This document shows, piece after piece, positions 1-27,943 of a stretch of 64,000 nt of DNA (position 1 is the first letter of the stretch; every line of letters starts with the position of its first letter). The position numbers and the translations under genes are program-made. Under the pieces are notes generated by a model, which made no database searches, was not told the DNA's origin, and saw nothing but the letters and a program-made list of their open reading frames with translations. The stretch comes from an uncultured Gemmatimonadaceae bacterium. GTDB lineage: Bacteria; Gemmatimonadota; Gemmatimonadetes; Gemmatimonadales; Gemmatimonadaceae. The stretch covers positions 480,001 through 544,000 of the forward strand of contig CAWHHI010000020.1 in the NCBI GenBank assembly GCA_963829055.1. Direction: 5' to 3'.

Positions 1-321
1 GCGCGCTGTTGGCGGCGCAGCGCGGCGTGTGAGCAACCAGACCTTCTCCCTCCGCTCTCGATCTCCGTCGCTGCGCAGCGGTATCTCCGTGCCGTCGGGG
101 ACGGCCGTGACGGGATAGTACGGCACGCGAAGGGAACGGACATTGGACCTTGGGCGCGGGTCGGGAGGGGAGGCTACGGTCGGCGCGGCCGGGCCCCACT
201 GCTCCGTTGGAGTCGGCACGCGTCTGATCGGCACGCAGCGAGCGCTCCACCGCGTTAGGCGGCGCCATCGTCGCCGCCGTCGCGCGCCTGCGGCATTTCC
301 GGCGCAGGGTGCGTGCGCCGC

Positions 322-1290
322 CTAGAAATCGATGCGAGTCACGACCCGAAATTGAGCCGCCTCCAGGTCGGGCACGGACCCCTCACGCAGGGCGACGCGC
401 GACCAGGCGAGGTCCCCGCCGATCGTGAATTGCGAGCGACCCGTGTAGAACAGACCGAGCTCGTAGATGCGGTAGCTGCCGCCGACATCCGCCGTGCGCG
501 CGGGGCCGTTCAGGCCGCGATACGCCAGCGAGAGCCCGATCGGGACGTCTGACAGCTTGCGGAAGTCGAATCCGACCTGCGCACCGATCGCCGTCAGCGA
601 CTCGTTGTCCGTCGCGGCCGCGTCCGCCAGCCCTGATTCGAGTGAGGCTTTGAGTCCCACCCATGGTCGGATGCCCCACGCTCCTCGAAGTCCGAGCGAC
701 CAGCGGTTGATCGGGACGACGCCGAGGAGGCGTTGTTTGGTGCTGTCGGTGTAGCCGCCGTCAGCAATCCCCTTGACGAACCCGTACGGATCGATCTCGT
801 ACGCTGAGGCGTGACGAACATCCCCGACCGCGGAGACGAGGAACTGCTGATTGTGCCAGATCGGGACGGTTGCGCCAAACGAACCGCCGAACGCCGCCAA
901 TGCGCCGCTCGCGACCACCGCCTCTACGCTCGTGCCCACGCGCCCGACGGCGTTCGCGCTCACGCGCAACGCGAGCCGACGCCCGAGCGACTTCTGGTAC
1001 TCGAAGTCGATGAGGAGAAATCCAATGTTGCCCTGAAGCGAATCCACCTCATCGCCGATGAGGTTTCGCACCGGGACTGTCAGATTGACGGCCGTGCCCC
1101 CACCGGTCGAGTTGAAAAAGTGCGTGGTCGCGAATGCATCGGGGACGACGCTCGACGGCAGGAACCGAAATCCGTCGAGGCAGTGACGACATGGATCCTG
1201 CGCAGCCCCGGAGCTCGCGCACAGCACGCCGAGCCCGACCGCAACGACCAGCATTCGATAGGACAGCCGGGACGACGGTCGCGCTCCCAT
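322..1290 (-). CDS. Secreted putative outer-membrane beta-barrel protein with N-terminal CxxC; paralog of 15053-16045
   Basis: ORF 322..1389; probable ATG at 1290 preceded by GAGGTG; signal-peptide-like segment, DPCRHCLDGFRFLPSS, amphipathic strands, C-terminal Phe (VTRIDF). Confidence 0.65.
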   Translation of the reverse strand: MGARPSSRLSYRMLVVAVGLGVLCASSGAAQDPCRHCLDGFRFLPSSVVPDAFATTHFFNSTGGGTAVNLTVPVRNLIGDEVDSLQGNIGFLLIDFEYQKSLGRRLALRVSANAVGRVGTSVEAVVASGALAAFGGSFGATVPIWHNQQFLVSAVGDVRHASAYEIDPYGFVKGIADGGYTDSTKQRLLGVVPINRWSLGLRGAWGIRPWVGLKASLESGLADAAATDNESLTAIGAQVGFDFRKLSDVPIGLSLAYRGLNGPARTADVGGSYRIYELGLFYTGRSQFTIGGDLAWSRVALREGSVPDLEAAQFRVVTRIDF

Positions 1291-1472
1291 GGCACACCTC
1301 GGGCGAAAGGCAATGCGCCGGGCGACAATGGGCGGCCGGCGCAGCACAACCGGAAACAATGCTGGTCGTTGCGGTCGGGGCCAGTACACCTTGGCCTAAC
1401 CCGCCTAACGTCCTCGGCTGACCGATCCGGTGAACCGATGCGGTGAACCAATGCGGGCGCGTCACCGATTGA

Positions 1473-1485
1473 CCGAAGGTACAAT
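1473..1485 (+). promoter_or_regulatory. Shared cluster operator CCGAAGGTACAAT
   Basis: TACCGT follows after 22 bp; upstream of the DUF4136-like operon. Confidence 0.65.
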
Positions 1486-1772
1486 GGGCGTGCATCGACA
1501 CCGGCCCTACCGTTCCGTCGAAGTCAGCCGGCGTGCACACGGCAGCCCGCGGTATGCACGTCGCGCGACGGGGCGCCTCGAGCGGAGCGGTCGGTCGCAT
1601 CGTGGCACACCTACCGGGATGTTCACGGGTGTCGCCTAACGAGATCCGCACTGGGAGCGAGCACGCTGATGGCACCGTCGCGCTCACGCCACGCAACCCG
1701 GCCCCCGAACGATCGTGGACCGGGCTCTCAGGCGCTCCGCACTCACCCCGCGGGACAGAGGAGGGAAGAACC

Positions 1773-2421
1773 ATGATCGGACGCTCGACCTTCGGCATCG
1801 CGTGCCTCGCGGTCGTGACCGTCGCGTGCTATCCCGGTCGCTCGGTCGACTCCACGAGCGAGTTCGTTTCGGTCACGACGCTGTACGACCAGGCGGCACC
1901 CTTCGAAGCGGTCAAGAAGTACGCCCTGCCGGATACAGTGCTCTACGTTCCGAAAAAGGAGAACGAGGAAGTTCCGGCCGCCACCCAGGCAGGCCATCCT
2001 GTCCGCGATCCGCACGAATCTGAACGCGCTCGGATGGACCGAAGTGACCAACGCGCGCACGACGCCGGTCGACGTGTACGTGGTCGCGGCCGTCACGTCC
2101 ACGACGTACGTCGGGTGGGTGTACGACTATTGGGGCTACTGGGGTTGGTACCCGTATTGGCCCGTGGGCTATGGCGCGCAGCACCAACTGGTACTACCCC
2201 CGCTACTGGTACGCGTACAGCTACACGACGGGAACGGTGGTGCTTGGCATGATCGACGGTCGGCCACAGGCCTCCAGATGGCCAGCGCGCTCCGCTCGTG
2301 TGGTCCGCGGGTGTCAACGGCGTGCTCGACTGATGCGAGCAACCAACATCACCATCGCCACGGCAGGCATCAACCAGGCGTTTCAACAGTCACCGTATCT
2401 GAGCACCGGAGTACGCAATGA
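1773..2421 (+). CDS. DUF4136-like lipoprotein (frameshifted; end approximate)
   Basis: GAGGG RBS and ATG at 1773; lipobox VVTVAC; KYALPDTV; Tyr/Trp/Gly-rich segment YWGYWGWYPYW; YSYTTGTVVLGMID and GINQAFQQSPYL lie in other frames. Confidence 0.65.
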
Positions 2422-3093
2422 TGAGACCGTTCGTCGAAGCACAGAGCGTGCACCGCGCGCGGCACGCGACGAGTGACGTGCGCGCTGTCCCTCCTCGTCC
2501 TCGTGGCGGCGCCCCTCGCCGGCGGGAACGCACAAGTCCTGACCCAGCCATACGTCGGAACCCTGTCGTACACGACGGCCTCACCGGCCGGCGACTCGAA
2601 GGACTTCGCCAACAACTTCAGCTGGCTCGGATTCACCGTCGAAGGCGACTGGTTCGCCCGCACGAACCTCTCGACCGGGTTCATCGTCGGCTGGCAGGAG
2701 ATCTACAACGAGAAGAACGGAGACCAGTTCACGTTCACCAACGGGGCGGTGACGGGTCGCACGTACGAAGCATCTGGAGGCACTCCCCATCCTCGCGCGC
2801 GCGCGCTACTGGACCGGAAGCCCGGGCGAGACGTTCATGCATTCGCCGGGCTCGGGCTGGGCACGTACTGGGTGAAGCAGACCGTCGACGTCGGCATCTA
2901 CACGGCCGATGAGAGTCACTGGCACTTCGGGGTCGCCCCCGAGGTGGGGCTCCTGATGGTGACCGGCTACGACGTCGGGTGGACGCTCAACGCCCGATAC
3001 AACTACCCGGTCGCCGCCGGCGACTACCTGTCCGGCACGAGCAACGCGTGGTCGTATTGGGGATTCGGGATTGGTCTGACCTACACGCATTGA
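2418..3093 (+). CDS. Small outer-membrane beta-barrel protein (internal frameshifts likely)
   Basis: ORF 2473..3093 with signal peptide, AGLGLGTY, WHFGVAPEVG and C-terminal WGFGIGLTYTH; directly follows the DUF4136-like gene. Confidence 0.6.
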
Positions 3094-3133
3094 CCGTCGG
3101 GCGGCCCTTCCCGCTGACTCACGTTAGGCACCC

Positions 3134-4140
3134 ATGTCATTGCTCCCGGTGCGCGCCCACCACGGCCTCGTCGCGGCGGCCATCTATCTTGCCGCCGCGA
3201 CGAGCGGCTCCGCGCAGAACCCTGATCTCATGCTGTCGAAGGCCGAGCGCGACAGCATTCTCAAGAACTACCACAACGTGTTTCCGATCTGGGGGCGCAA
3301 GGCGATCGAGAAGGGATTCGACCTGCCGTACCCCGCCGGGTTGGGCGTGAACTTCGTCTACGCGAGCCAGAACATCGATCTCACGAACCTCGGGCTCAGC
3401 ACCGGTACCAATCCGGTCGTGCCGGTCGACTTCATCAAGTTCGGCGAAACCAACGCGCCGGTGCTCACACCGAACCTGCGCGCGGATCTGTGGGTGTTGC
3501 CTTTCCTCAACGTGTACGCGTTCGGTGGCGTCGCGTGGGTCACAACGGACGTCGAAATAGCGGAGCCCGTGCCCTTCACCACGAGGGTGGAGCAGAGTGG
3601 TTATTACGCCGGGCTCGGCGGGACGGCGACGATGGGCATCAAGCACAACTGGCTGGCGTTCGACCTGAACACCGCATGGACGAAAACCGAGAAACTCGAC
3701 GAGCCGGTTCGTGCCCGCATTTTCGGCATCCGGCTCGGTCGCGCGCAGAAGCTCCAGGGCACGCAGCGGGTCGCGATCTGGCTTGGCGCCATGAAGCAAA
3801 CGCTCAAGTCCACGACCAACGGGAGCATCAACCTCAGCGAGGTCATCGCGGGCGGCGGCGACGGCGGCGGGACTTCGAGGACTACGAGGACAGCGAGTGG
3901 TACCAGGGCCTCCCTCCCGCGCAGCGGCGGGTCGTCGATGAGATCGTCAAGCGCATCCAGGGCATCGACCCTAGCGACGTCGTCGTCAATTATTCGCTCG
4001 ACAAGGCAACCGCCGACCCCTGGAACATGATCGCCGGCGCCTCCTACGACTTCTCCAAGACCTGGGCGGGCCGCGTCGAGACCGGATTCATCGGACGCAA
4101 GTCGGTGTTGTTGATGCTGAACTACCGATTCGAATGGTAG
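3134..4140 (+). CDS. Putative outer-membrane beta-barrel protein (frameshift near 3870)
   Basis: Signal peptide; PIWGRKAIEKGFDLPYPAG and RADLWVLPFLNVY; second frame ends PWNMIAGASYDFS...LNYRFEW. Confidence 0.6.
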
Positions 4141-4275
4141 CCTAACGCCGCCTGGATGGCGACGCGCTCGCCCGAGCCCCGCCGTCCGACGATCGCGCGC
4201 CGTACCTCAGCGCGGGACAATGCGGCACGCCCCGCGACTCGCTTCGACTCGCGTCGCTCGAATGACGACACGGGG

Positions 4276-4288
4276 CCGAAAGTCCAAT
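4276..4288 (+). promoter_or_regulatory. Shared cluster operator CCGAAAGTCCAAT
   Basis: CAACCT follows after 22 bp; 70 bp before the DUF1254 ATG. Confidence 0.65.
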
Positions 4289-4357
4289 GGCTCGGCCGTT
4301 ACGTCCGTTCCAACCTTTCCGGTATGACCCTGTGGGTCTCGATGCCGGGAGGCGACG

Positions 4358-5854
4358 ATGCAACGGGAGCGTAGTACGAACATCGAGTACGCGAACATCG
4401 AGCACGGGCTCCCCATCCCGCGGTCCGACAGGCGTATGCTCGAGCGCGAAGTTCCGGTTCCCACTGGACAGCTCTCCGCGGAGGAGGCGCTCGAGATCGC
4501 CGTCAATGCGTACGTGTACGCATATCCGTTGGTCATCATGGACGTGACGCGCGCCGTATCCACCAACACCGTGGGCGTGAACAACGCCCGGTTGCGCGCG
4601 CCGGTGAATCAGTTCGCCCATGCTCGATCATTCCCCGACGCGACGTTCACCGACGGTGTGCGCCCCAACGCCGACACGCTCTACTCGACCCTCTGGTTCG
4701 ACGTGTCCAGGGAGCCGCTGATCATCACGGTGCTCGACTCGGGGGGGCGGTATTACCTCCTTCCGATGCTCGACCTCTGGACCAATGTCTTCGCATCGCC
4801 CGGCAAGCGAACGACCGGCACCGGACCGCAGCGGTTCGCGATCGTCGGGCCGCAGTGGAGCGGGAAGCTGCCGGCAGGCGTGGACCTCGTACGTGCCCCG
4901 ACGTCGTCAGGCTGGCTCAGTGTGCGCATACAAACAAACGGCCCGTCGGACTATGAGGCCGTGCGCGCGTTCCAGTCCAGGCTGTGCGCGACACCCCTGT
5001 CGGTCTTCGGCACGACGTACACGCCGCCGCCCGGCAGGACCAGCCCGATCTCGGAGGCGTCGCCGGTGGAGCAGGTGGACGCGATGGATGCCTCGACATT
5101 CTTCGGGCGGTTCGCCGCGCTCACCGGCGACAACCCACCGCACGCGAACGACCACCCAATGGTGCAGCGCGTTAGGCGGCTCGGCATTCCACCCGGGGGG
5201 AGGTTCGTTCTGGAACGGCTGGCTCGCACATCGGCCGACGCGTTGGAGCAGGCAACCACGATCGCCAGGGAGAAGATCCTCGCGTACGCGCAGCGCGCGT
5301 CGCGACGCGTCAACGGGTGGTCGATGAGCGGGAACCCTATCGGTACCTACGGCACCGACTATCTGAAGCGCGCGCTGATCGCCCGCATGGGACTTGGCGC
5401 GAACACCGTCGAGGATGCGATCTACCCATCGGCGTTCGCGATGGCCGACGGAACGCCGTTCGAGTCGGCTGGGCGCTACGAGCTGCGCTTCGCAGCGAGC
5501 GAGCTCCCGCCCGCACACGCATTCTGGTCGCTCACGATGTACAACGATCGCCAGCTCTTCGCGGCCAACCCGATCGGCCGATACGCCATCGGGGATCGCG
5601 ATCCACTGCAGTTCGGTCCCGATGGGACGCTGACGCTCTACATCCAACGCGTGTCGCCAGGCACGGAACGAGAGACCAACTGGTTGCCCACGCCGCAGAC
5701 CGGCGGGTTCAGCATGAACCTTCGCATCTACTGGCCCGAGGCGAGAGCACTCGACGGCAGATGGGCACCGCCGCCCGTGAAGCGCATGGGCGCATCGGCT
5801 GAAGCGCTTCAGCGGAGTCAGGTCGTTCGACACGAATGCCTGCATGTCGCCTAA
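4358..5854 (+). CDS. DUF1254/DUF1214 domain protein
   Basis: AYVYAYPLV, RPNADTLYS, GRYYLLPMLDLWTNVF, AFWSLTMY, NWLPTP and LRIYWP motifs. Confidence 0.9.
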   Translation: MQRERSTNIEYANIEHGLPIPRSDRRMLEREVPVPTGQLSAEEALEIAVNAYVYAYPLVIMDVTRAVSTNTVGVNNARLRAPVNQFAHARSFPDATFTDGVRPNADTLYSTLWFDVSREPLIITVLDSGGRYYLLPMLDLWTNVFASPGKRTTGTGPQRFAIVGPQWSGKLPAGVDLVRAPTSSGWLSVRIQTNGPSDYEAVRAFQSRLCATPLSVFGTTYTPPPGRTSPISEASPVEQVDAMDASTFFGRFAALTGDNPPHANDHPMVQRVRRLGIPPGGRFVLERLARTSADALEQATTIAREKILAYAQRASRRVNGWSMSGNPIGTYGTDYLKRALIARMGLGANTVEDAIYPSAFAMADGTPFESAGRYELRFAASELPPAHAFWSLTMYNDRQLFAANPIGRYAIGDRDPLQFGPDGTLTLYIQRVSPGTERETNWLPTPQTGGFSMNLRIYWPEARALDGRWAPPPVKRMGASAEALQRSQVVRHECLHVA

Positions 5855-6179
5855 CAACCGCGTCGCGTTCACACTGGACCTGCGTTGTCATTGCCGACAG
5901 GGCTTGGCGTCGTGCACTGGCGTCTGATGTCGCTTCCGCGGCTACCATAGTCCAATGGCCCCGCCGGTGGCCAAATGGTGGATTGTTGGTGGTAAATCGC
6001 AGCGCACCGGTCCCATAGCACGATGGTCATCGGGCACATGCTGCGGGTGAACAATGGTCCAATTGCCGCATCCGCCACGGTGCGGCAGCCTCCAAAACAG
6101 ACCAGGAGCCGCGCGACACGCGGCGTACTGATCGCGCTCGGTTTCACCACATTCACGCACGCCTGACGAAGGAGTCGAC

Positions 6180-7760
6180 ATGATCGCGAAGTTCCTTCGG
6201 CGTCGACCCCTGGGCACTCTTTCCCTTGGCGCCGCCGTCCTGCTGACCGGCGAGCGCCCGACGCCGCAACAGTCGGCTGCTGCTGCCAATCAGCCCTCCG
6301 CCTCGCAGCAGCGGACGGACACCGCCACGAAGACGGCGTCGACCGCTACGGGCGCAGACACCGCGAAGGCAGACAGCGCCGCGAAGAAGCTTCCACCGGA
6401 GGCGCTCGAGGCGCTGGTCGCACCGATCGCTCTTTATCCTGATGCGCTACTCGCGCAGACGCTCGTTGCGTCGACCTATCCGCTCGAGATCGTTCAACTG
6501 CACCAATGGATGGAGAAGAATTCCGGGCTGAAGGACAAGGCGCTGGCGGACTCGGTCGCCAAGCAGCCCTGGGATCCGAGCGTCCAGTCCATGGCGGCGA
6601 TTCCCGAGGTGGTGAAGCGCCTGGCCGACGACATCCAGTGGACCACCAGCATGGGCAACGCGTTCCTCGCGCAGCAGCAGGACGTGATGAACGCCGTGCA
6701 GGTGATGCGGAAAAAGGCGAAGGAGAAGGGAGCCCTCGAGTCCAACGAGCAGCAGAAAGTCGAGGTCCAGACCGTCGAGTCGAAGCAGGTGATCGTGGTG
6801 GAGTCGAAGAATCCCGAGGTCATCTACGTACCGTCGTACAGCCCGACGGTCGTGTACGGCGCTCCCTATCCCTATTACCCGTATCCGCCGATCTACTATC
6901 CGCCCTATTACCCGGGCACCGCCTTCGTGGCGTTCGGGGTTGGCATGATGTGGGGCGCGGCGATCTGGGGTGGATCCTGCTGCTACGCGGGTTGGGGCGG
7001 CGGCAACGTCTACATCAACAACGGTAACAACTTCGTCGGCGGAGTCGGCGGAGTCGGCGGCGTGGGTGGAGTTGGCGGTGTTGGCGGAGTTGGCGGTGTC
7101 GGCGGAGTTGGCGGTGTAGGTGCTGTTGGTGGCGTAGGCGCTGTTGGTGGCGTAGGTGGTGTTGGTGGTGCCGGCAAGCCCGGTGGTGTCGGTGGCGCTG
7201 GGGGCGTGGGTGGTCCGGTGGCGCGGGGGGCGTTGGGGGCGCCGGTGGAGGCCGGCCGGGAGGTGCTCAACCGAAGGCTAGCCAGGGGGCCGCTTGGTCG
7301 CACAACCCGTCGCATCGGGGCGGCGCGCCTTACGGTGACAAGGCAACGGCAGATCGTTTTGGCGGTTCGTCGCCGGCGACGTGGGCAACCGCTCGTCAGG
7401 CATCGGCGGCGGCGGGGCCGGCAACCGCGGCCCGGGTGGCTCCAGTGGGGGACTTGGTGGCTCCGGTGGGGTTGGGGCTCCGGTGGGCTTGGCGGCTCCA
7501 GTGGGCTTGGCGGCGCAGGGAACGCCGGCGGCGATCGCGTCGGCAACCAGAACATTCCGAGTGATCGAGGTGGTGGCGCGGGTTCGGGGGCCGGCTCGGG
7601 TAATCGCGGCGGCTCGAGCGCCTTCGGCGGCTCGGGCGGCTACAACGGTTCGAGCGCGCGCGCCAGCAGCTCCCGGGGCGCGTCGAGCATGGGATCCCGC
7701 GGGGGGTCACGCGGCGGTGGGGGAATGTCACGCGGAGGAGGAGGAGGACGACGGAGATGA
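6180..7760 (+). CDS. DUF3300 domain protein with long Gly-rich tail (compensating frameshifts likely in the tail)
   Basis: LEALVAPIALYPDALLAQTLVASTYPLEIVQ, PWDPSVQS, IYVPSYSPTVVYG; (GGV)n repeats and C-terminal RGGGG. Confidence 0.9.
   Translation: MIAKFLRRRPLGTLSLGAAVLLTGERPTPQQSAAAANQPSASQQRTDTATKTASTATGADTAKADSAAKKLPPEALEALVAPIALYPDALLAQTLVASTYPLEIVQLHQWMEKNSGLKDKALADSVAKQPWDPSVQSMAAIPEVVKRLADDIQWTTSMGNAFLAQQQDVMNAVQVMRKKAKEKGALESNEQQKVEVQTVESKQVIVVESKNPEVIYVPSYSPTVVYGAPYPYYPYPPIYYPPYYPGTAFVAFGVGMMWGAAIWGGSCCYAGWGGGNVYINNGNNFVGGVGGVGGVGGVGGVGGVGGVGGVGGVGAVGGVGAVGGVGGVGGAGKPGGVGGAGGVGGPVARGALGAPVEAGREVLNRRLARGPLGRTTRRIGAARLTVTRQRQIVLAVRRRRRGQPLVRHRRRRGRQPRPGWLQWGTWWLRWGWGSGGLGGSSGLGGAGNAGGDRVGNQNIPSDRGGGAGSGAGSGNRGGSSAFGGSGGYNGSSARASSSRGASSMGSRGGSRGGGGMSRGGGGGRRR
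7035..7215 (+). repeat. Degenerate 9-bp tandem repeat (GGYGGNGTN) encoding (Gly-Gly/Ala-Val)n
   Basis: ggcggagtc ggcggagtc ggcggcgtg ggtggagtt ggcggtgtt ... inside the DUF3300 gene. Confidence 0.85.
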
Positions 7761-8677
7761 CCATGTCCACGTTAGGCATCATGCGCGCGGGCACCGTGGT
7801 GGCCGCCCTCACCCTGGGAACGGCGTGCAACCGGCCGCCGCAGGAGTTCGACACGCCGGAGGCCGCGGTTGAATCGCTGGTCGCCGCGGCGGAACGGTAC
7901 AATGTCCCGGCGCTCAAGAAGATCCTCGGGACGAAGGGTGCCGCCCTCGTGACCTCTCCTGACGCGGTGAGCGACAGCCTTGACGCCACGCGGTTCGCGG
8001 AGCGGGCACGAGTCAAGCAGCGGCTCGACTACGACTCGTCGAGGACGACGGCGTTCCTTGCGGTTGGAGATCTGGATTGGCCAATGCCCGTCCCGGTCGT
8101 GGAGCGTGCCGACAAGAAGTGGTCGTTCGATCCGGAAACGGGGACCGACGAGATCCTCCTCCGGCGCATTGGCCGCAACGAGCTCGATGCGATCGACGTC
8201 TGCCGCGGGTACGTCGAGGCGCAGAAAGCGTACGCCCTGGAAAAGCACGACGGCGCGCTGGTGAACCAGTACGCACAGCGCGTCATCAGCAGTCCGGGAA
8301 AGCACGACGGGCTGGCGTGGCAGGCCGCTGACGGCAGCTGGCAGGGTCCCGTAGGCCAGGCGGTGGCTCGCGTGATCGCGCAAGGGTACAGGAAGGACAT
8401 GCCCCCGTATCACGGTTACTACTTCAAGATCCTCAAGGGCCAGGGCCCCGCGGCGCCACTGGGACAACTGGACTTCGTGGTCGAGGGCGCGATGATCGGC
8501 GGCTTTGCGCTCGTGGCCGCTCCGGCCGAGTACCTGGTGACCGGGGTGAAGACGTTCATCGTCGGCTACGACGGCATCGTGTACGAGAAAGACTTCGGCG
8601 AGAAAACGCTCGACGAGTTCCGCGCGATGGAGCGGTACAACCCGGACTCGACGTGGAAACCGGTCGGGAACGAGTGA
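7757..8677 (+). CDS. DUF2950 domain lipoprotein
   Basis: ATGA overlap with the DUF3300 gene; FDTPEAA, RRIGRNEL, SSPGKHDGLAW, PYHGYYFKIL, GGFALVAAPAEY. Confidence 0.9.
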   Translation: MTMSTLGIMRAGTVVAALTLGTACNRPPQEFDTPEAAVESLVAAAERYNVPALKKILGTKGAALVTSPDAVSDSLDATRFAERARVKQRLDYDSSRTTAFLAVGDLDWPMPVPVVERADKKWSFDPETGTDEILLRRIGRNELDAIDVCRGYVEAQKAYALEKHDGALVNQYAQRVISSPGKHDGLAWQAADGSWQGPVGQAVARVIAQGYRKDMPPYHGYYFKILKGQGPAAPLGQLDFVVEGAMIGGFALVAAPAEYLVTGVKTFIVGYDGIVYEKDFGEKTLDEFRAMERYNPDSTWKPVGNE

Positions 8678-11905: not shown

Positions 11906-11918
11906 ATTGCACCTTCGG
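11906..11918 (-). promoter_or_regulatory. Shared cluster operator CCGAAGGTGCAAT
   Basis: CATGCT follows after 22 bp; 64 bp before the DUF2092 ATG. Confidence 0.7.
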
Positions 11919-11997
11919 GTCATGCGTCAGCGCCTTGCCCGAGATGGCTCGCATCGCCGTCGTGCTGTTTCCCGCCGTGCACCGGCGGTCGGCGGCG

Positions 11998-12381
11998 TTA
12001 GCGGGTCGAGACTGTCGAGAAATTGAGCGGGCTCCCCACCCGTAGCTCGATCAGCTGTCCCGGCATCACTGTGATCGCGTCCGTCAGATAGCCGCGGGAC
12101 GCGCCTATCGGATCGACCAGCAGGCGCGCCGACTCGGTCGAAACGACCCCCTGTTTGATGCGGAACGTCGCATGACTAAGGCCGGTAACGGTTCCCATTC
12201 GGATCCGCGCGGTACCATGCACGAGGTAGATGACGACATCCAGCCAGTAGTCGTTCTGGACAACCAGCTGACTCGACTGTTGGCTTGCCGAGCCTGCGCC
12301 GGCCCCGCGCGCCGCGCACGCGCCCATGGCCGCTTCCATAGTTACGAGGGCGAGCACGGGGGTAAGTGCCGTGAATCGCAT
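11998..12381 (-). CDS. Hypothetical small lipoprotein
   Basis: GGAGG RBS and ATG at 12381; lipobox-like MGAC; beta-rich body. Confidence 0.6.
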   Translation of the reverse strand: MRFTALTPVLALVTMEAAMGACAARGAGAGSASQQSSQLVVQNDYWLDVVIYLVHGTARIRMGTVTGLSHATFRIKQGVVSTESARLLVDPIGASRGYLTDAITVMPGQLIELRVGSPLNFSTVSTR

Positions 12382-12452
12382 CGGTCCTCCCTGCTCCGTG
12401 GTTTTTGGAGCGTTAGGCGATACTATGGTACACGCCCATGGCAATATCAGCA

Positions 12453-12464
12453 ATTGGACTATGG
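12453..12464 (-). promoter_or_regulatory. Shared cluster operator CCATAGTCCAAT
   Basis: TACCAT follows after 22 bp; 72 bp before the lipoprotein ATG; identical 12-mer at 5945-5956 (+). Confidence 0.7.
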
Positions 12465-12536
12465 ATGGAACAGGGCGACGCCGCCGCCGTAGCTTCCATC
12501 TGCGGGCCGCGCCGGAGGCCTACGCCAGCGCGGCTC

Positions 12537-14290: not shown

Positions 14291-14430
14291 GGTAGTCCTC
14301 CATCTCGAATACGTTAGGTATCGTCTCGGATCAGCGCGCATGGGGAGCGAAAGCCGAGGTCGAGTCCAGTCCGGGACCGGTCCCGGACGTGGAGTGCGTT
14401 GGATGATTGTCGACTGCCAGCCGCGCGGCC

Positions 14431-14442
14431 ATTGCACCTTCG
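14431..14442 (-). promoter_or_regulatory. Shared cluster operator CGAAGGTGCAAT
   Basis: AATCAT follows after 22 bp; upstream of the barrel gene starting at 14290. Confidence 0.65.
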
Positions 14443-15052
14443 TGCATCGACCGGTTCGCGAAGTTGACCGCCCCTGGGACCGCGGACGGCACCCTGAAGG
14501 CGACCTCCGCCCTCGACTTCGCGGCGAGACACGCGACCCGAAGGTCGTGCCATTGATCTTCAGCGTCTGTCTCCCGACGCGTCGGACGCCGGGTCCCGGG
14601 CGGGCAGCCGCACGCCACCGGTCGATGCGTGGTCGAGCCGGAGACGCTCGACGCACGAATCCGACAGTGCACACACCGCTAGCGCCACCACGAAGACCGC
14701 GCGGACCAGCAACGCCTCTCTCGTTAGGCGATAGCCGTGGAAGTCGCGGGACAGGTGTGTGCGCATCCGATGACCACCTCGGAACGCGATGAGACGTCGC
14801 ACCGTTCTCGGTCCGCACGGAAGCCCCACCCCCAAACCGAGTCCGTGGATGAGGGTAAGGACGGGCCGGCGGGGCCGCCCATTGTACCTTCGGGCAATCC
14901 ACGGGATGCCCACGATGGTCGGCGAGGCGCGTTAGGTGAGTTGGGCCAAGGTGCACTAGCCATTGCGGCGGGGCTCGCCAACGTTGACGACAGTCGCGTT
15001 GCGCGCACCCCTACGGAATGAGCGGGAGCATCGCGTTGCCAACGAGGTCGCC

Positions 15053-17876: not shown

Positions 17877-17888
17877 ATTGCACCTTCG
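17877..17888 (-). promoter_or_regulatory. Shared cluster operator CGAAGGTGCAAT
   Basis: AATCGT follows after 22 bp; 76 bp before the porin ATG. Confidence 0.7.
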
Positions 17889-17906
17889 CCCAGATCAGAT
17901 CCCAGA

Positions 17907-18380: not shown

Positions 18381-20336
18381 CTACTGGGGCCTAGGTCCTA
18401 TACCGCTCGGTTCGGCATTCTCTGGAGGCTCACCGAACGCGTGGTCCGAGCGTGCGGCCGCTCGGCGGATCAGCTCCATCACGTGCACGACGACGCTGCT
18501 CGATTCACCCTGGCGGGTCAGCATCTCGATCCCCCAGGTCAGGTCGAGTCCACGGACCCGCACGGCGGCCAGGCCGGCCGGTGGCAATCGCAGGTGCGTA
18601 CGAAATCCAAGACACCACCCTTCACCGCGTCGCGCCACGGACCACATCGTCTGAAGTCCCTGGTACTCGCGCTCGATCCGAGGGTAAAACTCCTGCGCTG
18701 CGAACAGCAGCATCGTTCGGTCGTAGAACGCCGGATACACCCAACGCGGCACGAAGAGAAACGGAAACTCACCGAGGTCGGCCAACGCGATCTCGTCGCG
18801 CATGGCGAGGCGATGCTCGGGCGGCAGCAGCACGCAGCAGATCGGGTCATCGATCAGCTGGTGGCGCTCGAGTTGCGCCAGGAACGGCGTCACGGATGTG
18901 AACGCGTAGCAGAGCCCCACGTCGGCCTCTCCAGACACGAGCGCGTTAGGCTGGTCTGTCGTCGGCATCTCGACGAATCGCACGTGCGCGTCCGGCAGCT
19001 CGCTGGCAGCAGCACGTACGAGTGCGCCGACCAGGTGCCCGGTGACGAACGCCGGAATGACGGCCACGATACAGTGACCTGTCGCGCCGCGCGTGGCGCG
19101 ATGTGCGTCGGCCGCGACGCCGGTAACGCGATCGAGTATGCGTTGAGCGTCTGCCGCGAAGGTCTCACCAGCCGCGGTTGGTACCACGCCCGTCGGCTGA
19201 CGCTCGAGCAGCTGCACGCCGAACATGCGTTCGAGATCGTGCATCTGCCGCGAGAGCGTTGGTTGCGTGATCGCGAGCCGTCGCGCGGCTCGCCCAACGC
19301 TCCGTTCCTCGACGACCGCCAGAAAGTAGCGAAGGTGCCGGAGCTCCAGGGCCCGCAGCGCCGTCATGTCGGATGCCAGCTCGTACGGTTGGCCCTGTTG
19401 GCCTGCCGGGATGACGGATCGGATTGCGCCCGGCGATGCGGTGTGGGCGGGCTCGCGCGCGATCGTGAGCAGTGCGTCGCGCACGGTACGGACAACCCCC
19501 GGCAGCCGGCCACGCTTGGAGATAACGTGCATCGCGATCGGCGCAGCGAGGTCCTCAACGGGAACCACCACGTTCTCCGGCGGAACCCACGCGGCGAGCG
19601 CACGGATGAACGGCGTCCACGCCTTACCGGCGGCGATCACCGCGAATGCGTCGGCAACGCCCTCCGTCGTCTGGATCGGCGCAGGCGGGGTGACGCGTGC
19701 GGCAATCTGTTCGCACACGCGGCGGTGATCACCCTCGAGACCCACCGGGCTGACGATCGTTTCGGTCGCCAGCTCGGACAGTCGAATGCTCGCGCGGCCT
19801 GCCAGCGGATGCCTGCTGGCCAGTACGGCGGCGTCGCAGTAGTTGACGACGAGGACTCGAGACTCGAGGTCCGTGAACTCGCGCGACGCTTCGACTCCGA
19901 TGCCGAGATCGGCTTCGCCGGACCGGATCGCGAGCCACTGTGTCGGCCCCGTTCCTTCGATGACGCCAAGCTCCACCATCGGGCAATCACGGGCGACCGC
20001 CGACATGAGACCCGCGATCAAACCATTCCACGTCGGCACCAGGCCCGCGCAAATGGAGCATTGGCCCGCCAGCCCGCGACTCGCCGATCGCGTGCGCTCG
20101 AGCGCCTGGGTGATCTCCTCCGTGATGGCGCGAGCCGTGACCGCGACGGACTCACCGGCGGGTGTAAGACGGAACGATCGCCGGTCGCGCACGATCAGCC
20201 GTTCGTTCAGCTCACGTTCGAGATCCTGGATCTGACGCGACAGAGCTGGCTGCGCCAGTCGAAGACGCTCGGCGGCGCGCACGAACCCGCCCTCGTCGGC
20301 GACTGCGAGGAAGTACCTGAGGTGGCGCAAGTCCAC
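18381..20336 (-). CDS. Tandem (double) LysR-family transcriptional regulator
   Basis: Two complete HTH plus effector units in one frame: VDLRHLRYF...AQPALSRQIQDLE and LELRHLRYF...TQPTLSRQMHDLE; probable GTG start at 20336. Confidence 0.85.
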   Translation of the reverse strand: MDLRHLRYFLAVADEGGFVRAAERLRLAQPALSRQIQDLERELNERLIVRDRRSFRLTPAGESVAVTARAITEEITQALERTRSASRGLAGQCSICAGLVPTWNGLIAGLMSAVARDCPMVELGVIEGTGPTQWLAIRSGEADLGIGVEASREFTDLESRVLVVNYCDAAVLASRHPLAGRASIRLSELATETIVSPVGLEGDHRRVCEQIAARVTPPAPIQTTEGVADAFAVIAAGKAWTPFIRALAAWVPPENVVVPVEDLAAPIAMHVISKRGRLPGVVRTVRDALLTIAREPAHTASPGAIRSVIPAGQQGQPYELASDMTALRALELRHLRYFLAVVEERSVGRAARRLAITQPTLSRQMHDLERMFGVQLLERQPTGVVPTAAGETFAADAQRILDRVTGVAADAHRATRGATGHCIVAVIPAFVTGHLVGALVRAAASELPDAHVRFVEMPTTDQPNALVSGEADVGLCYAFTSVTPFLAQLERHQLIDDPICCVLLPPEHRLAMRDEIALADLGEFPFLFVPRWVYPAFYDRTMLLFAAQEFYPRIEREYQGLQTMWSVARRGEGWCLGFRTHLRLPPAGLAAVRVRGLDLTWGIEMLTRQGESSSVVVHVMELIRRAAARSDHAFGEPPENAEPSGIGPRPQ

Positions 20337-20502
20337 AAAGACGCTCCGAACCGAAATGCATGAGTTCTCACCAGGGCATGGCTTTTCATACAAGAAAGTC
20401 TTAGCGGCGGATATTGGCCTCTGGTTACCTCTTAAAAGCGCGCTGCGAACCAGACCTGGGTTCGCGCGCTGACTGTTTCGGCCCGAAGCGGGCCTTGACC
20501 AG

Positions 20503-22030
20503 ATGTGCGCGATGGCGCACAGGATGCGCGCCGTGAACTTCGTCGAAGGGCAACAACTGAACTGTGGCGTGCTCGACATTCTCGTCGAGCACATCGCGAA
20601 GACTGTAGCGGATTCTGCTGTATTCATTACGGCAGAGGTGCCCGAAACGGGCGTCCGGATTCTCGCTGAATTCCCCCCGGCGGCGGCGACCGGTGCGCCC
20701 AACGCTCAGGCGCACGAGCGCCGTACGACTGGGGACAGCGAAGGCCTGCGGATGGATGAGCCGGCCGTAGCAGCCCCCGTTCAGTTCGGCGACGCGGTCA
20801 TCGGTTGGGCCGTCATGGTCGGTCCGACGCTCGCGGAGGACAAGAAGGCCGAGGGGCTGATCACACTGCTGGCCAGGTGTGCGAGCGTTCTCCTCGCCCT
20901 TCCGCGACGCGATGAGAGCGTCGAGCGCGCCAAGCGTCGCTGGGAGGATGCCGCGCGCGACGGATACTGGGAGTGGGATCTCGCGAGCGGTGCGATGCGG
21001 TTCTCTCGCCAGAGCTTGTCGCTCCTCGACTACCGGGATCGGGATCGTCCGAACCGGGCGGCGGTGTGGCTCGATCGCGTTCACCCCGATGATCGCCTAA
21101 CGCTGATCGCCTCGCTGCTCACAGCAGCGACCGACGACGACACGCCGGTCGACGTGGAGCATCGGATCGTGCGGAAGGACGGCTCGGTTGGATGGCTTGC
21201 AGTACGGGCGTTCCTCGAGCGTGATGGAAGTGGCCGTCCGATGCGGTTGATCGGGTGGCTATCGGATGTGAGTCGTGCGCGGCACGTCGAGTCGGAACTG
21301 CGGAACGCGCAGTTGTTGGCCGATGTGGGTCGCGTCGCGGCGGGCACCGCGCACGACTTCAACAACTATCTCACAATCATTCGTGGACATGCGGACCTCG
21401 CGATGCGGTCGGTCGACCCGGCGAGCAACGCCCGGGAGAGTCTGGAATTGATCAAGCACGCAGCCACGGGCGCGACGACGTTGACGCAGGCAACTGCTCT
21501 CGTTGCGTCGCAGTCAGGCCCCAGTGCAATCGCTGGTAGACCTGAACGTCGTCGTCGCGGCTGCCGAGCGGACGCTTCGTTCGCTCGCGGGAAGCACGAC
21601 GCGCGTGAACCTGAAGCTTGCATCTGACCTCTCGGCCGTGCGCGTCGAGGCGGGCCACGTGGAGCGTCTGCTCATCAATCTCGTCGTCAACGCTCGCGAC
21701 GCGATGCCAGGCGGCGGCGTGGTGACCATCGAGACGGCGGATGCGTCGTACGACACGTTAGGCCCCGACACGCGACCCCTGTTGCTCCCGGTGGCCGACT
21801 ACGTCCTCCTGACGGTGAGCGACACGGGTACGGGGATGTGCCATGCGACGCGCGCGCGCATCTTCGAGCCGTTCTTCACTACCAAACCTGGCAGGCAGGG
21901 CACCGGGCTGGGGTTGTGGATCGCTCGGGACATAATGCAGCGCTGCGGGGGCGGCATTGACGTCCGCAGCACCCCCGGGAATGGGACGACGTTCACCATG
22001 TACTTTCCTCGTGCGGAGCCGCTTGGCTGA
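20503..22030 (+). CDS. PAS-domain sensor histidine kinase (frameshift near 21500)
   Basis: GYWEWD, WLDRVHPDD, AHDFNNYL (H box), NLVVNARDAM, DTGTGM, FEPFFTTK, GTGLGL. Confidence 0.9.
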
Positions 22031-22600: not shown

Positions 22601-22933
22601 GTGATGCCTCCGTGGTGGCTACCTGCCGCCGATTGGCGTCGCGGCCGGAATGCCGTGCTGGCTGCATCGCCGGCGTATCGACTTAGTGCGGCGAGAGTAC
22701 GGCCATGGTACGGAGAGCGCCTCGCGGCGGGCGATAGCACCTTAGGGATACGCGAACCAACGGCTCGGCTATACGAAACCGCTGCCGGATTTGCGGACTC
22801 CGCGAAATCGTTCCCACGCCCCGCTTCCGTCGCACCGCGACGACTTGGAGGTTTTCGCCAGGGTCGATCGACGATCAGGCCTGTATCAGGGCTCGCCAGC
22901 GGATGGTGGCGAGCGTTGTATTCTGAATTGTTA

Positions 22934-22945
22934 CCAAAGGCCAAT
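22934..22945 (+). promoter_or_regulatory. Shared cluster operator CCAAAGGCCAAT
   Basis: TAGACT follows after 21 bp; 73 bp before the FixJ-like ATG. Confidence 0.65.
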
Positions 22946-23017: not shown

Positions 23018-23740
23018 ATGGAGCAGGATCGGATGACTCTCATGCAAACGCAGAGTGAAGGCGAGGACGGGTTCGCCTACTGCGCTGACGATTTCACCAG
23101 GTCTGTCAGGTCGGAGGCGACGCGGCGGCCGACCGTCTACGTAGTGGACGACGACGATTCGATGTTGACGGGACTCGCCAGTCTGCTCGGCGCGGCCGGG
23201 TATCGCGTCGAGGCCTTCAACTCGGCTCTCGACTTCCTGGCCGTTCCGAGGAGAAGGCCGGCGTGCCTGGTGCTCGACCAGTTGATGCCGGAGCTCACCG
23301 GCGCCGACGTCTACCGACACCTTCTGCTCGACCCCGATCCCCTCCCCGTCGTCTTTCTCTCCGGCAGCGGCGACGTCGCCGCGGCGGTCGATGTCATGAA
23401 GGCCGGCGCCATCGACTTTCTGCGCAAGCCGGTCGATGGCGAGGAGCTGTTGGCCGCGGTCGGGCGCGCAGTCGCACGCGACCGCGCCGCAGAGGCTGAC
23501 CGCCTCGAAAGGGATCGGCTCCAGGGACGCCTCGCCCGGCTCACTGTTCGGGAGCAGGAAGTTCTTCACGAAGTCGTGCAGGGACGACTCAACAAGCAGG
23601 TGGGCGCGCGCCTGGGGATCACGGAGCGCACGGTGAAGCGCCACCGCGGAATGGTCATGCACAAGCTCGGCGTGGACTCCGTTGCGGAACTGGTGCGATT
23701 CGCCGACCGCATCGTCGAAGGCGAAGGCGCTCGCGCGTAG
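23018..23740 (+). CDS. FixJ/LuxR-family DNA-binding response regulator
   Basis: VYVVDDD, CLVLDQLMPELTG, MKAGAIDFLRKP, LTVREQEVL...LNKQVGARLGITERTVKRHRG. Confidence 0.92.
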   Translation: MEQDRMTLMQTQSEGEDGFAYCADDFTRSVRSEATRRPTVYVVDDDDSMLTGLASLLGAAGYRVEAFNSALDFLAVPRRRPACLVLDQLMPELTGADVYRHLLLDPDPLPVVFLSGSGDVAAAVDVMKAGAIDFLRKPVDGEELLAAVGRAVARDRAAEADRLERDRLQGRLARLTVREQEVLHEVVQGRLNKQVGARLGITERTVKRHRGMVMHKLGVDSVAELVRFADRIVEGEGARA

Positions 23741-24306: not shown

Positions 24307-24319
24307 CCGAGCCGCGCGC

Positions 24320-26919
24320 TCAGAAGCGAACTGGCGACCTGGGAGCGGGCAGAAGCGAGGGCTCCCCGGACGGTATACGCCTGTCGTCGTGGCGTTCCTG
24401 CGGGGAAGCGGCAGATTCCTTGGCGATCACGAATGCGACTCGCGCTCCGCCACCCGGCAGGTTCTCCGCCCAGATCCGGCCGCCGTGTGATTCCACGATC
24501 ATCCGGCAGATCGACAGGCCCATCCCGATGCCATCGGGCTTCGAGGTAACGAATGGCTCGAAGACCGACTCGAGCTGATCGGACGCGATCCCGCCGCCGG
24601 TGTCGGCGACTCCCACGATCACGCCGCCGCCTGGCTCAGCCTCGACCGACACGCGCACCTGTCGCTCCGGCGCATTCGTCGCCACGATGCTGTCGAATGC
24701 GTTGAGCACGAGGTTCACGACCACCTGCTCGATCTGGACGCGGTCACCCCACACCGATGGAACCTCTGCGCTCGCTGAATGGATCAGCTTGATGCGGCGA
24801 CGTACCGCATCGCCACTCAACAGCGCGGCGATACCGGCAACGAGATCGTCGAGGCGGAATTCGGCGAGATCGGTCGGCTGCTTGCGAAGGAGTCGCCGCA
24901 AGCGGTCGATGATGGTGTTTGCACGCCGCACGTCATTGGCGACCATCTCGAGCATCCGCGTGACCTCGTGCATTTCGGGGGCGCTTCCGGCTCCGGCCGC
25001 GCCGCCCGCGAGCCACCGCTGAGCGGCCTGCACGGACAGGAGGATGGCGCCCAGCGGCTGGTTGATCTCGTGGGCGAGCGACGCTGACAGCTCGCCGACG
25101 ATACCGACGCGAGCCATGTGGGACAGCTCTTCACGGCGCTGCGTCACCTCGAGCTCGGTACGACGCCTGATGATGGAGTTCGTGAGCACGAGGCAGAGGA
25201 GGTGGAGTCCGTCGACGATCCAGGCATCCCACGAGCGCTCGTGGCGCACGACGGCAACCACGAGGACGCCGACGCAGCGGCCGCCGGCCATCATCGGGAG
25301 GCCCACCACCGACTTCACCCCGCGCTCAACGTAGCCAGCTCGGTCGCCAACCAGGTCGTCGGGCATTGACGACATCGAAGAGATCTCGACTGGCTCGCCG
25401 CGCCGCAGCCTGGCCCACGTGGCGGGAAGCCCGGCAGGGCCCAGAGCTTGTGCGGGGCCGACACCGGGTGCGGCCCAGCGATGGAGGATGCGGAGCGAAT
25501 CCGTCGACTCGTCCAGCATGGCCAGCATTGCCCGGTCGACCCCGACGAACTCCGCGGCTTGAGCGAGAATTTCCTCCGCGACGTCGTCGAGCTGCGCCCC
25601 GGTCGCGGCGACCAGCTTGGCGGAGAGTCGCAGCAGCAGCAGCTCCAACTGCCGCTGAGTCTCGCCCGCTTGCTCGGCTACGCGGCGCCGGCGGAACTGG
25701 CGCAGGAGCGCGACAATGAGCGTCGTCTGCACCGCGATCACGGCGAGTATGATGAGCAGTGGCCGTCGATACTGCACCCACGGGGACGCGACCTTGTCGA
25801 TGACACGGCTCCCTGGTGGCAGACGCGCAGGATCGAGACCGAAACGTTGCATCGTCGGCCAGTCGAACTGGTAGGACGCGGTGCCTCGCAGGTCGATGGG
25901 AGTCGCCGACGGCGGAACGCCAGCGAGCACCGCCTGAGCCATGGTGGCGGCACGCTGCCCCCAGCACGGCGAAGTCGAGTACCGCGCCACCGACGATCCC
26001 GCGCCCCAGGTGCGTGGCCGACACGCCGTATATGGGTACGCTCGTGGCCCGGACGAGCTGTTCGAGTGCCAGCACCGTCACGAAGCGAGTGCCGTCCGCA
26101 TCAGTATCCATCGACGCGAAGAGCACGACAGAGCCGCTACGAAGTGATGCGGCACGACGCAGCACGCTGGGGAAGTTCAAAGGGCTTGTGTACTCGATTT
26201 GAAGCCGACCTTCGTAGCTTCGCAGCTGTTCACGCACCAATTGCTCGATGCCGTGTTCGAAGTCACTGGTGCCAATGACCACGAGAACGTGTTTCGTCTG
26301 AGGCTCCAGTTTGACCACAGCATCCAGCGTAGCTGCCGCATCGACGCGGATGGCAACACCCGTCACGCGGCCGGATCTGAATGCCGCCAGCGAGCTCCGC
26401 CTCGTTGGAGGAGAGCAAGATGACGGGTACGTCGCCGACGAGCTCGCCGGCGGAGAGCTTCTGGACCACGCTGTGGGGAAGTCCGGCGCCGATCACGAGG
26501 TCGGGGCGCTGGACAGCGTACTTTTTCCGGATGTATTGGTAGGTCAACTGGCTCGCGGAGTTACCCTCGGCACCTGTGAGGCCCAGGTGTTCCTCGAACA
26601 GCTCGACGCGGCGGCTGCTGTCCGCCCCCAGTCGCTGGCGAATGACTTGGTCGAGGAGCGCGACAGCGGGCTGCTGGGTCGCCTCCTCGAAGAGGAGCAG
26701 GACGCGGCGGTTCGTTCGTGTCGCTTTCGCGTCCGCCGAGGTCGTCGGGTTACGCGAGGGTGCGTTTTTCGCCGCGGCCGGTGTCTGTGACAAGGCTGCC
26801 GGCGGCATTCCCATCGCCAGCAGTGCGACCAGTGCGATCACAGAGAGCATGAGGGGAACGCTCGAACCGAGGCCCGTCCCGATTGGACGCGCCTCTGGCT
26901 CGCTGATCCAGAGCCTCAC
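24320..26919 (-). CDS. Membrane sensor histidine kinase with ABC substrate-binding-like periplasmic domain and GAF (two frameshifts)
   Basis: Three ORF pieces; signal peptide, PDLVI, TM segment, GAF, ELSASLAHEINQPL, QVVVNLVLNA, FEPFVTSKPDGIGMGL. Confidence 0.85.
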
Positions 26920-27046
26920 GTTATGCGAGGAGGTGCGGCCGAACGAACGACCGGTTAGTGGTCGTCGTCATTGAATGCTCCTCGGGAATGGACACGTCGC
27001 GACCGAACACACGAGACCATCCTCGCCTGCCCAGTCGCAACCCGCC

Positions 27047-27059
27047 ATTGGACCTTCGG
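27047..27059 (-). promoter_or_regulatory. Shared cluster operator CCGAAGGTCCAAT
   Basis: GAGGAT follows after 22 bp; upstream of the sensor kinase gene. Confidence 0.7.
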
Positions 27060-27096
27060 CACGGGGGTCCCCCGTGCTCGTTACTTCGAGTTCGAC

Positions 27097-27855
27097 CTAC
27101 TTCGCGGAATAGCCCTTCCCGTCCAGACAGGTGGTGAAGCCGTCAGCGAACTTCTTCTTGCTCTGATCGGCTGCCGCCGCCGCTTGCGCCTGCGCGTCGT
27201 TCGCGGCGGCCTGATTGTTCGCCTTCTGGTTTCGGCGGCCGGCCACTCCACCCGCGGCGGCGCCGATCGCGGCCCCCTTGCCAGCGTCGCCGGCGATCGC
27301 ACCGATCGCCACGCCAGCCACGGCCCCTTTCGCCGCGCCCTTGGCTGCCCCGCCCTGCGCAGGGGGCGGCGCGGTTGCTGCACCCACCGGTGCGTACGGG
27401 TCGATTCCCGTGTTCGTCTTCGCCCACACGAAGCACTCGTTCTCGTCGAAGTGCTGCTGCTCGATCGGCTGTCCGTTCTTCGGGTACACGACGACGCCAA
27501 TCGCCGACCCGGACGCCTTGGGATCGAACGGAGGATAGGTCTTCGGGGGCGGCGGCGGGGGCGCACTCGCCGGTTCCGCGGCGGCGGGCTTGGCCGCTGC
27601 CGGCTTCGCAGCTGCTGCCTTCGTAGCTGCCGGCTGCGCTGCCTCGGGGCTTGCGACGGTCCCGGCGGAGACCATGGTCGCCGTGTCGCCTGCCGGCACC
27701 GTGGTCGCCGCTGGTGCGGCCGTGTCAGTGAGCGTGGCGCCGGCGGACGCGTCCGATCTCCCCTTGCACGCGGACAGCGATAGAGCCGTAAGCGCGAACG
27801 TGCACGTTACGACGACGATGTGCGCCGCACGGGGCGCGAATGGTCGGGTGCTCAT
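27097..27855 (-). CDS. Glycine-zipper lipoprotein; paralog of 22049-22600
   Basis: Lipobox LSAC; Ala/Pro-rich linker; same zipper sequence; CLDGKGYSAK. Confidence 0.8.
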   Translation of the reverse strand: MSTRPFAPRAAHIVVVTCTFALTALSLSACKGRSDASAGATLTDTAAPAATTVPAGDTATMVSAGTVASPEAAQPAATKAAAAKPAAAKPAAAEPASAPPPPPPKTYPPFDPKASGSAIGVVVYPKNGQPIEQQHFDENECFVWAKTNTGIDPYAPVGAATAPPPAQGGAAKGAAKGAVAGVAIGAIAGDAGKGAAIGAAAGGVAGRRNQKANNQAAANDAQAQAAAAADQSKKKFADGFTTCLDGKGYSAK

Positions 27856-27931
27856 GTTCCCCTTCCCTGGTGACGGAACGCCGGCCGAGGGCCAGCCATC
27901 ATCAGCCTAGGAGGGCGCACGCGCGAGGGAC

Positions 27932-27943
27932 ATTGGCCGTTGG
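27932..27943 (-). promoter_or_regulatory. Shared cluster operator variant CCAACGGCCAAT
   Basis: TAGGCT follows after 22 bp; 77 bp before the glycine-zipper ATG. Confidence 0.6.

Follow-up and report, generated by a model that had tools for sequence, protein, structure and literature searches.

Class II activation by dimers of the NarL/FixJ family is a known mechanism, and several described regulators of this family come close to a predicted regulon that we found in an uncultured Gemmatimonadaceae bacterium and not in the literature searched. The stretch of DNA analysed, called the window here, comprises 64,000 nucleotides (positions 480,001 to 544,000 of contig CAWHHI010000020.1, assembly GCA_963829055.1; contig C20 of genome G000 in our numbering, G000:C20:480001-544000), and the element in question is an 18-bp imperfect inverted repeat, ATTGGAC-N4-GTCCAAT, present at 33 places of an island that begins before the window. 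This repeat likely binds dimers of the FixJ/StyR-type regulators encoded in the island, which would recruit RNA polymerase from about -43.5, that is, by class II activation. A full-text search, with figures and most subscription journals outside its scope, returned no description of the motif or the regulon, and atlases based on HT-SELEX (high-throughput systematic evolution of ligands by exponential enrichment) or DAP-seq (DNA affinity purification sequencing) may hold a relative's logo; exact spellings of the motif returned unrelated eukaryotic papers only.

Published statements on the closest systems are given here from excerpts of the cited papers. The EL222 box, GGTAGCC-TTTA-GTCCATG, activates the sigma-70 promoter PBLind-v1 from 21 bp before TATAGT (PMC5001607). 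EL222 has the closest solved helix-turn-helix (HTH) domain to that of RR3, one of three candidate regulators of the island (E 2e-11), with a near-identical recognition helix (LGITERTVKRHRGMVM in RR3 and LGLSEKTVKMHRGLVM in EL222), and its 18-bp box keeps the C-N4-G register of the element. However, EL222 is a light switch acting via a LOV domain, whereas receiver domains are found here, the outer box bases differ, and PBLind is synthetic. Under a symmetric matrix, the EL222 box was matched or beaten by 5e-5 of 60,000 random 18-mers. With a 12-bp sequence taken as the EL222 consensus, 23 of 34 Verrucomicrobiota sites showed no mismatch, and the mean was 1.8 mismatches in the sites of G000 and 6.0 in random sequence. 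The best full-length structural match of RR3 is 1yio, which we take to be StyR (E 2e-42), followed by FixJ (6e-34) and DevR (1e-14). In the StyS/StyR system of Pseudomonas fluorescens ST (and TodS/TodT), as in the arrangement proposed here, a phosphorylated StyR dimer activates from about -40 (PMC2442086); unlike that arrangement, StyR controls one catabolic operon, and no styrene genes are annotated in the island.

The DosR/DevR system of mycobacteria is likewise a large single-input stress regulon, and the core of the element, GGAC-N4-GTCC, agrees with the middle of the DosR consensus TTSGGGACTWWAGTCCCSAA (PMC2275270). Some Verrucomicrobiota sites hold GGGACTAAAGTCCC exactly. The outer bases in G000 and the targets differ, however, and the island regulators are nearer StyR and FixJ than DevR. 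The T-N4-C-N4-G-N4-A skeleton of the element is the same as the LiaR consensus, which is recognised by a lysine that corresponds to NarL K188 and DosR K182 (PMC4482077). A TVK lysine is present in the recognition helix of each island regulator, and in our own reading it may be equivalent to DosR K182. The FixJ motif quoted for fixK is GTACGTAG; the FixL/FixJ system of rhizobia differs in its FixJ helix, SPRT[IV]EV, no fixK-type gene lies in the island, and the best NCBIfam matches, FixJ for the regulator and FixL for the kinases, score below the cut-offs (174 of 255 and 153 of 850). In Sinorhizobium meliloti, SMa1684, SMa1686 and SMa1688 are a homologous kinase, a FixJ-type regulator and a single receiver, in a cluster that is small; SMa1686 is described, in the part of PMC4560400 covered, as a FixJ-like core gene that is not known to be connected with microaerobic growth or symbiosis, and the excerpts covered name neither targets nor a binding site. 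Membership in the FixLJ, DosR or EL222 systems was rejected in view of the sub-cut-off FixJ and FixL scores and the different helix, the weaker DevR match and the lack of a LOV domain, respectively. A CRP/FNR class II promoter was rejected as well, because the consensus is unlike a TTGA-N6-TCAA-type box and no Crp-type HTH gene lies in the island.

The inverted repeat and its predicted promoter geometry

A first-pass annotation of the window had listed 16 copies of a 12-13 bp element, and all of them were recovered, position and strand alike; all 16 lie in non-coding DNA. A 14-column matrix was built from these sites (leave-one-out scores 11.3-21.5 bits). Genes were called by a simple in-house codon-score caller on an assembly (7.8 Mb, 20 contigs, 86% complete) that contains single-base errors. 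The predicted operators of the window are as follows, with the distance to the -10 hexamer where one is given.

142..159, minus strand: predicted operator before an amidohydrolase gene that extends before the window; TACTAT at 21 bp
1383..1400, minus strand: predicted operator, ACT variant, before the open reading frame (ORF) 322-1290; hexamer at 21 bp
1468..1485, plus strand: predicted operator before the unit ~1533-4140, whose first gene is split by likely assembly insertions; TACCGT at 22 bp
4271..4288, plus strand: predicted operator before the DUF1254/DUF1214 gene 4358-5854
5939..5956, plus strand: predicted upstream operator of the DUF3300-DUF2950 unit, without a hexamer at 21-23 bp
6046..6063, plus strand: predicted proximal operator before DUF3300 (6180-7760) and DUF2950 (7757-8677); CAGCCT at 22 bp
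11906..11923, minus strand: predicted operator before DUF2092, DUF6515-like and MscS genes
12453..12470, minus strand: predicted operator before ORF 11998-12381; TACCAT at 22 bp
14431..14448, minus strand: predicted operator before ORF 13829-14290; AATCAT at 22 bp
14881..14898, minus strand: predicted operator of uncertain target, 591 bp from the next confident start; TACCCT at 23 bp
14940..14957, plus strand: predicted operator, ACT variant, before ORF 15053-16045
17877..17894, minus strand: predicted operator before the outer-membrane beta-barrel gene 17031-17801
20413..20430, minus strand: weak predicted operator (14.1 bits) before the double-LysR gene, without a hexamer at 21-23 bp
22928..22945, plus strand: predicted operator before the RR3 gene, kept in the ortholog of genome G011
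27047..27064, minus strand: predicted operator before the sensor kinase gene; GAGGAT at 22 bp
27932..27949, minus strand: predicted operator, the last of the island, before the glycine-zipper gene 27097-27855

We found that the element is longer than first described. Six bases upstream, outside the first matrix, are conserved in Verrucomicrobiota sites (T 0.97, G 0.62, G 0.85, A 0.65), and because of this conservation the element is given here as an imperfect inverted repeat of 18 bp, the upstream half being the weaker one. In G000 that half is degenerate, with a mean of 2.5 of 6 matches compared with 1.1-1.4 at control positions. The core C and G, whose columns belonged to the matrix, occur in 33/33 own sites and 34/34 Verrucomicrobiota sites. 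The T at -10 of the element, a position absent from the first matrix, occurs in 18/33 and 33/34, and the T-N4-C-N4-G-N4-A skeleton is complete in 14/33 and 32/34, respectively. The stronger, promoter-proximal half would set direction.

A sigma-70-type -10 hexamer lies 21-23 bp downstream of most island sites; with this hexamer at -12 to -7, the centre of the element falls at -43.5 from the predicted start (range -42.5 to -44.5) and not, as first proposed, at -41. The last T of the element is the first base of a poor predicted -35, e.g., TGGCCG. By this geometry, starts are predicted about 35 bp beyond the element, at about 1520, 4323 and 6098 on the plus strand and 11871, 12418, 14396, 17842, 27012 and 27897 on the minus strand of the window. 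The earlier statement that an nAnnnT hexamer follows most window copies after 21-23 bp holds for 14 of the 16; the distance of 64-77 bp to the start codon, said to be frequent, was found at 6, or at 7 if the regulator starts at 23018. At the 33 island sites of at least 14 bits, the hexamer stands in the forward position in 25 and in the mirror position in 3, which agrees with the proposed oriented, activator-type operator abutting a poor -35. The ends of soil RNA contigs cannot map transcription starts and were not counted as evidence. Among the 32 of 296 pieces listed, contigs from three runs end at 14377-14382, 14-19 bases into the transcript predicted to start at 14396; one ends at 12407 (predicted start 12418), and one starts at 6090, 8 bases before the predicted 6098.

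Matches outside the training set point in the same direction. The 95 kb before the window hold 17 matches of at least 15 bits, compared with 0.49 expected from the rest of the genome (39 matches in the other 7.63 Mb; the outer limit of the 95 kb was set after the matches were known). Sixteen of the 17 are non-coding, where 22% of the DNA is non-coding, and among these 13 are directed to a start at most 350 bp away (background 34%) and 12 show nAnnnT 22 or 23 bp downstream of the final T (background 5.8%, from sequence only). A matrix trained solely on Verrucomicrobiota placed 15 of its 28 genome-wide matches inside the island, which makes up 1.6% of the genome. By our own reading of the gene map, the first 28 kb of the window comprise about 17 transcription units, of which 14 have a site. 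As had been noted, window 28-64 kb has no convincing copy, its one match (15.3 bits) being coding, and the loose GT[CGA]CAAT strings at window 7897, 13603, 16010, 21524, 26888, 28296 and 28756 are below 12 bits as full sites. A shared regulon is supported, and its former outline, an envelope cluster of 28 kb, is replaced: the island extends from about C20:385 to 511 kb (125 kb), has about 30 predicted promoters and includes acid-resistance modules.

Two side observations concern individual sites. The upstream half of the 1383 site overlaps, at window 1390-1410, copies of the genome-wide word CGTTAGGC. Strong isolated sites lie outside the island at C4:208666, C6:132268, C6:74925, C11:205570, C18:63659 and C20:784378; several isolated outside sites have the hexamer at 22-23 bp and are possible outlying members of the regulon.

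The element in other genomes

Twenty-one Verrucomicrobiota loci, fetched for DUF2950 alone, hold 34 non-coding matches versus 1.9 for column-shuffled matrices, with the spacing of 22-23 bp seen in G000. In the Verrucomicrobiota genome G061, a 125-kb stretch holds 17 of the 26 strict matches (control 0) together with both FixJ-like genes, the partner of one regulator being a PAS kinase and that of the other a MASE1 kinase; by reading of translations, the genes of this island include AspT, asparaginase, PPK2 and sulfatase. In four further Verrucomicrobiota genomes, the strict matches number 12, 8, 7 and 1 (controls 0-1), and in five Acidobacteriota genomes 1, 0, 3, 0 and 0; recurrence of the element was accepted for one of the latter. 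Among 60 relatives of G000, the exact 14-letter pattern has 6-9 copies in four congeners with DUF2950, 2 and 5 copies in two without it, and zero copies in 23. On pSymA of S. meliloti 2011, 4 matches were found in 49 kb (control 0.7), 3 of which, within 3.6 kb, lie around SMa1684-1688 (names from the 1021 table). The G061 island also holds four near-identical small ORFs, each near a site (L160:7213-7650, L160:16576-17013, L159:9545-9976 and L162:10392-10829).

Sites also accompany regulator genes. Of 12 regulator loci with E[KQR]T[VI]K helices, 8 have sites nearby, compared with none of 14 SxRTVE-clade loci (the G013 locus left out); in metagenome loci, a site lies near the regulator in 15 of 19, mostly near-identical RR2 orthologs. 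In genome G068, all 3 strict matches lie at most 3 kb from the sole FixJ-like gene. In a tree of 58 rows, from which the frameshifted RR1 and RR2 of G000 were left out, regulators with SEITVK-type helices fall on a single branch (support 99/90). They have a site variant of their own: the upstream half is A[TC]AC in 24 of the 36 distinct sites close to them and in 0 of 59 sites near others. In G000, the exact SEITVK-type variant (GATAC-CATC-GTGCAAT type) has six matches genome-wide, all near SEITVK-type genes. Separate clusters of such regulators lie at G000:C20:362000-380000 (L258), adjoining the island, and at C12:32000-38200 (L013).

A wider reading is put forward tentatively: one portable EL222/DosR-type box may wire acid-defence and envelope islands of more than 100 kb in uncultured soil Gemmatimonadota and Verrucomicrobiota, with Acidobacteriota and S. 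meliloti as smaller outposts; several FixJ-type regulators with different kinases may share the box, and paralog clades may be separated by two bases of the promoter-distal half-site. If so, the element would show how a large regulator subfamily, most of it uncharacterised, recognises DNA, and would point to a common stress role for DUF3300, DUF2950, DUF2092 and DUF1254 proteins.

Candidate readers and rival explanations

The island encodes three FixJ/StyR-type response regulators, namely, RR1 at C20:392.7 kb (helix SEKTVKVHRS), RR2 at C20:404.6 kb (CEQTVKVHRS) and RR3 in the window, and several FixL-type kinase genes, some with MASE1 domains. No sigma-factor or Crp-type HTH genes were found in it. 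The genes of the window that matter here are as follows.

23018..23740, plus strand: RR3, FixJ/StyR-type response regulator with a receiver and a LuxR-type HTH (helix TERTVKRHRG), one of three candidate readers
24320..26919, minus strand: sensor kinase with an N-terminal sensor region, GAF, HisKA and HATPase, in pieces in the assembly, homologous to S. meliloti SMa1684
18381..20336, minus strand: double-LysR protein, a likely target and weak rival reader

In the proposed mechanism, the kinases, one with an SMa1684-like N-terminal sensor and others with MASE1, would phosphorylate the regulators; RR1, RR2 and RR3 would share the site, and their dimers at about -43.5 would recruit RNA polymerase. 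Five kinds of evidence favour this family as the reader: the position of sites beside such genes, the covariation of site variant and paralog clade, the LiaR-type skeleton, the EL222-like helix of RR3 and the promoter geometry known from EL222 and StyR. The domain make-up of RR3 (a receiver and a GerE-type HTH, no LOV domain) fits this role, and an RR1 ortholog matches 1yio, FixJ and EL222. The homology of the window kinase to SMa1684 extends over both the sensor and the kinase parts, and one PAS-containing kinase piece matches FixL, chiefly in the part ahead of the phospho-histidine. Window 20503-22030 (plus strand) and 28384-31400 hold additional PAS/GAF kinase pieces and a single-domain receiver, with no clear site.

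The first-pass annotation had assigned the activator role to RR3 alone. In that account, RR3 and the neighbouring kinase are the single master activator pair, and positive feedback on both genes switches on the island. Both genes do have the site, the RR3 helix is the most EL222-like of the three, and the kinase is similar to SMa1684, whose neighbour is the sole FixJ-like gene found in the 49-kb stretch of S. meliloti. The HTH of RR3 is 91% identical only in G011, the ortholog of which keeps the site in its promoter. However, no close RR3 ortholog was found in the five motif-bearing relatives searched, which are incomplete assemblies (77-92%); the best identity was 44-49%, and RR1- and RR2-type genes are present in them instead. 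The RR1 promoter also has sites. The assignment to the family is upheld, with its kept site and EL222-like HTH, and that of a sole reader is unlikely to be correct: since three FixJ/StyR-type regulators are encoded in the island, RR3 is likely one reader among several, and several inputs would converge on one box.

A reader of another kind appears less probable still. Candidates are the double-LysR protein, a NarL-type fusion at C20:382 kb and an alternative sigma factor encoded elsewhere. The double-LysR protein (651 aa) comprises two tandem LysR units; three congeners have full-length homologs (56-58% identity), and a fourth has a partial homolog. Its gene has a weak site and is itself kept in 4 of 4 congeners searched, and the genome has 41 sigma region-2 matches. 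Nevertheless, a double LysR was not found in genome G029 (83% complete), which has 7 exact motif matches, and none of these candidates is in keeping with the palindrome, the TAnnnT hexamer and the covariation with FixJ-type paralogs.

Repression comes out marginally lower in our estimation: FixJ-type regulators would bind the site and mainly repress, covering the -35 region until a signal arrives. The last base of the site does lie on the predicted -35, and EL222 and StyR can repress from other positions, but the -35 is poor (TGGCCG-like), the spacing varies by no more than 1-2 bp, and the sites are oriented one way (25 versus 3 of 33). A steric repressor needs neither fixed spacing nor one orientation. 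That the motif is a product of chance or the remnant of a dispersed repeat is refuted: 39 matches of at least 15 bits do lie outside the island, 22 of them coding, but the 35-fold enrichment outside the training set, the unrelated flanks, the fixed -10 spacing and the conservation across phyla are all contrary to it.

Activation by the island regulators has its own counter-evidence. Two of the 16 window sites (5945 and 20413) are without a hexamer at 21-23 bp, and the EL222 box scores 7.2 bits, compared with a site median of 16, and so is below most sites. RR1 and RR2 are frameshifted in the G000 assembly, probably through assembly errors: their congener orthologs are open, and in the RR2 interval one gap was seen in two short-read contigs and none in two flanking contigs. 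The clade counts given above are not phylogenetically independent, and we place no weight on a P value for them because kin are not independent. Genomes G069 and G070 have FixJ-like genes and zero strict matches, and G063 has two such genes and one match. DUF2950 loci are often without the motif: one non-coding match was found in 10 other Gemmatimonadota loci, 9 matches versus 4.2 in 45 Acidobacteriota loci, and no excess in four proteobacterial loci. Given these counts, DUF2950 was rejected as a regulon marker. In the portion covered of the 2013 transcription start table for S. meliloti (strain 1021; PMC3616915), a start where predicted is missing for all 4 sites. The SMa1683 (arylsulfatase) operon has no start at all in that table and, for this reason, may have been uninduced; relative to the mapped start of SMa1684, one site is located on the opposite strand at about -77.5, and there is an overlap with annotated genes at one site.

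Island content and the likely signal

Before the window, the island encodes two arginine-type decarboxylases, an ornithine decarboxylase, PotE and AdiC-like antiporters, glutaminase, an aspartate-alanine antiporter, asparaginase and aspartase, together with a DASS carrier, RND efflux, PPK2, SulP, phosphoketolase, glycogen phosphorylase, aquaporin, TamB/BamA-like proteins, DcaP and MASE1 kinases. The part inside the window carries DUF1254, DUF3300, DUF2950, DUF2092, MscS, beta-barrel and glycine-zipper genes. On C20, sites lie ahead of three gene runs, namely, those with the decarboxylases (417.8 kb), with RND, glutaminase and AspT (456.3 kb) and with aspartase (475.2 kb). Established modules of acid resistance include decarboxylase/antiporter pairs and glutaminase. 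Since arginine/ornithine decarboxylase-antiporter, glutaminase, aspartate-alanine antiporter and asparaginase/aspartase operons are downstream of sites, we consider, with moderate confidence, that acid stress is the most likely inducing signal.

Positive feedback on the RR3 and kinase genes, as mentioned above, is plausible. Genes for single-domain receivers (C20:403.9 kb; SMa1688) also have a site ahead of them and could dampen the response; hence, the feedback need not be positive only.

In an excerpt of PMC4653623, DUF2950 and DUF3300 are termed uncharacterised. In the literature, DUF3300 together with DUF2950 appears as induced in two RNA sequencing studies, with no function given. In soil bacteria that are abundant and uncultured, the regulon predicted here would connect acid-resistance modules known from textbooks with dozens of unknown proteins of the envelope, and it predicts the site, promoter geometry and targets for FixJ/StyR-type regulators for which no account of targets was found in the literature searched. 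The closest records to the DUF2950 protein of the window are Gemmatimonadales from soil-type metagenomes.

The assembly has single-base insertions: short-read contigs are without the base at window 1991, 2178, 2277, 2460, 2767, 13899 and 16545, and also in L257. As these are likely insertion errors, many of the split genes are probably intact in nature.

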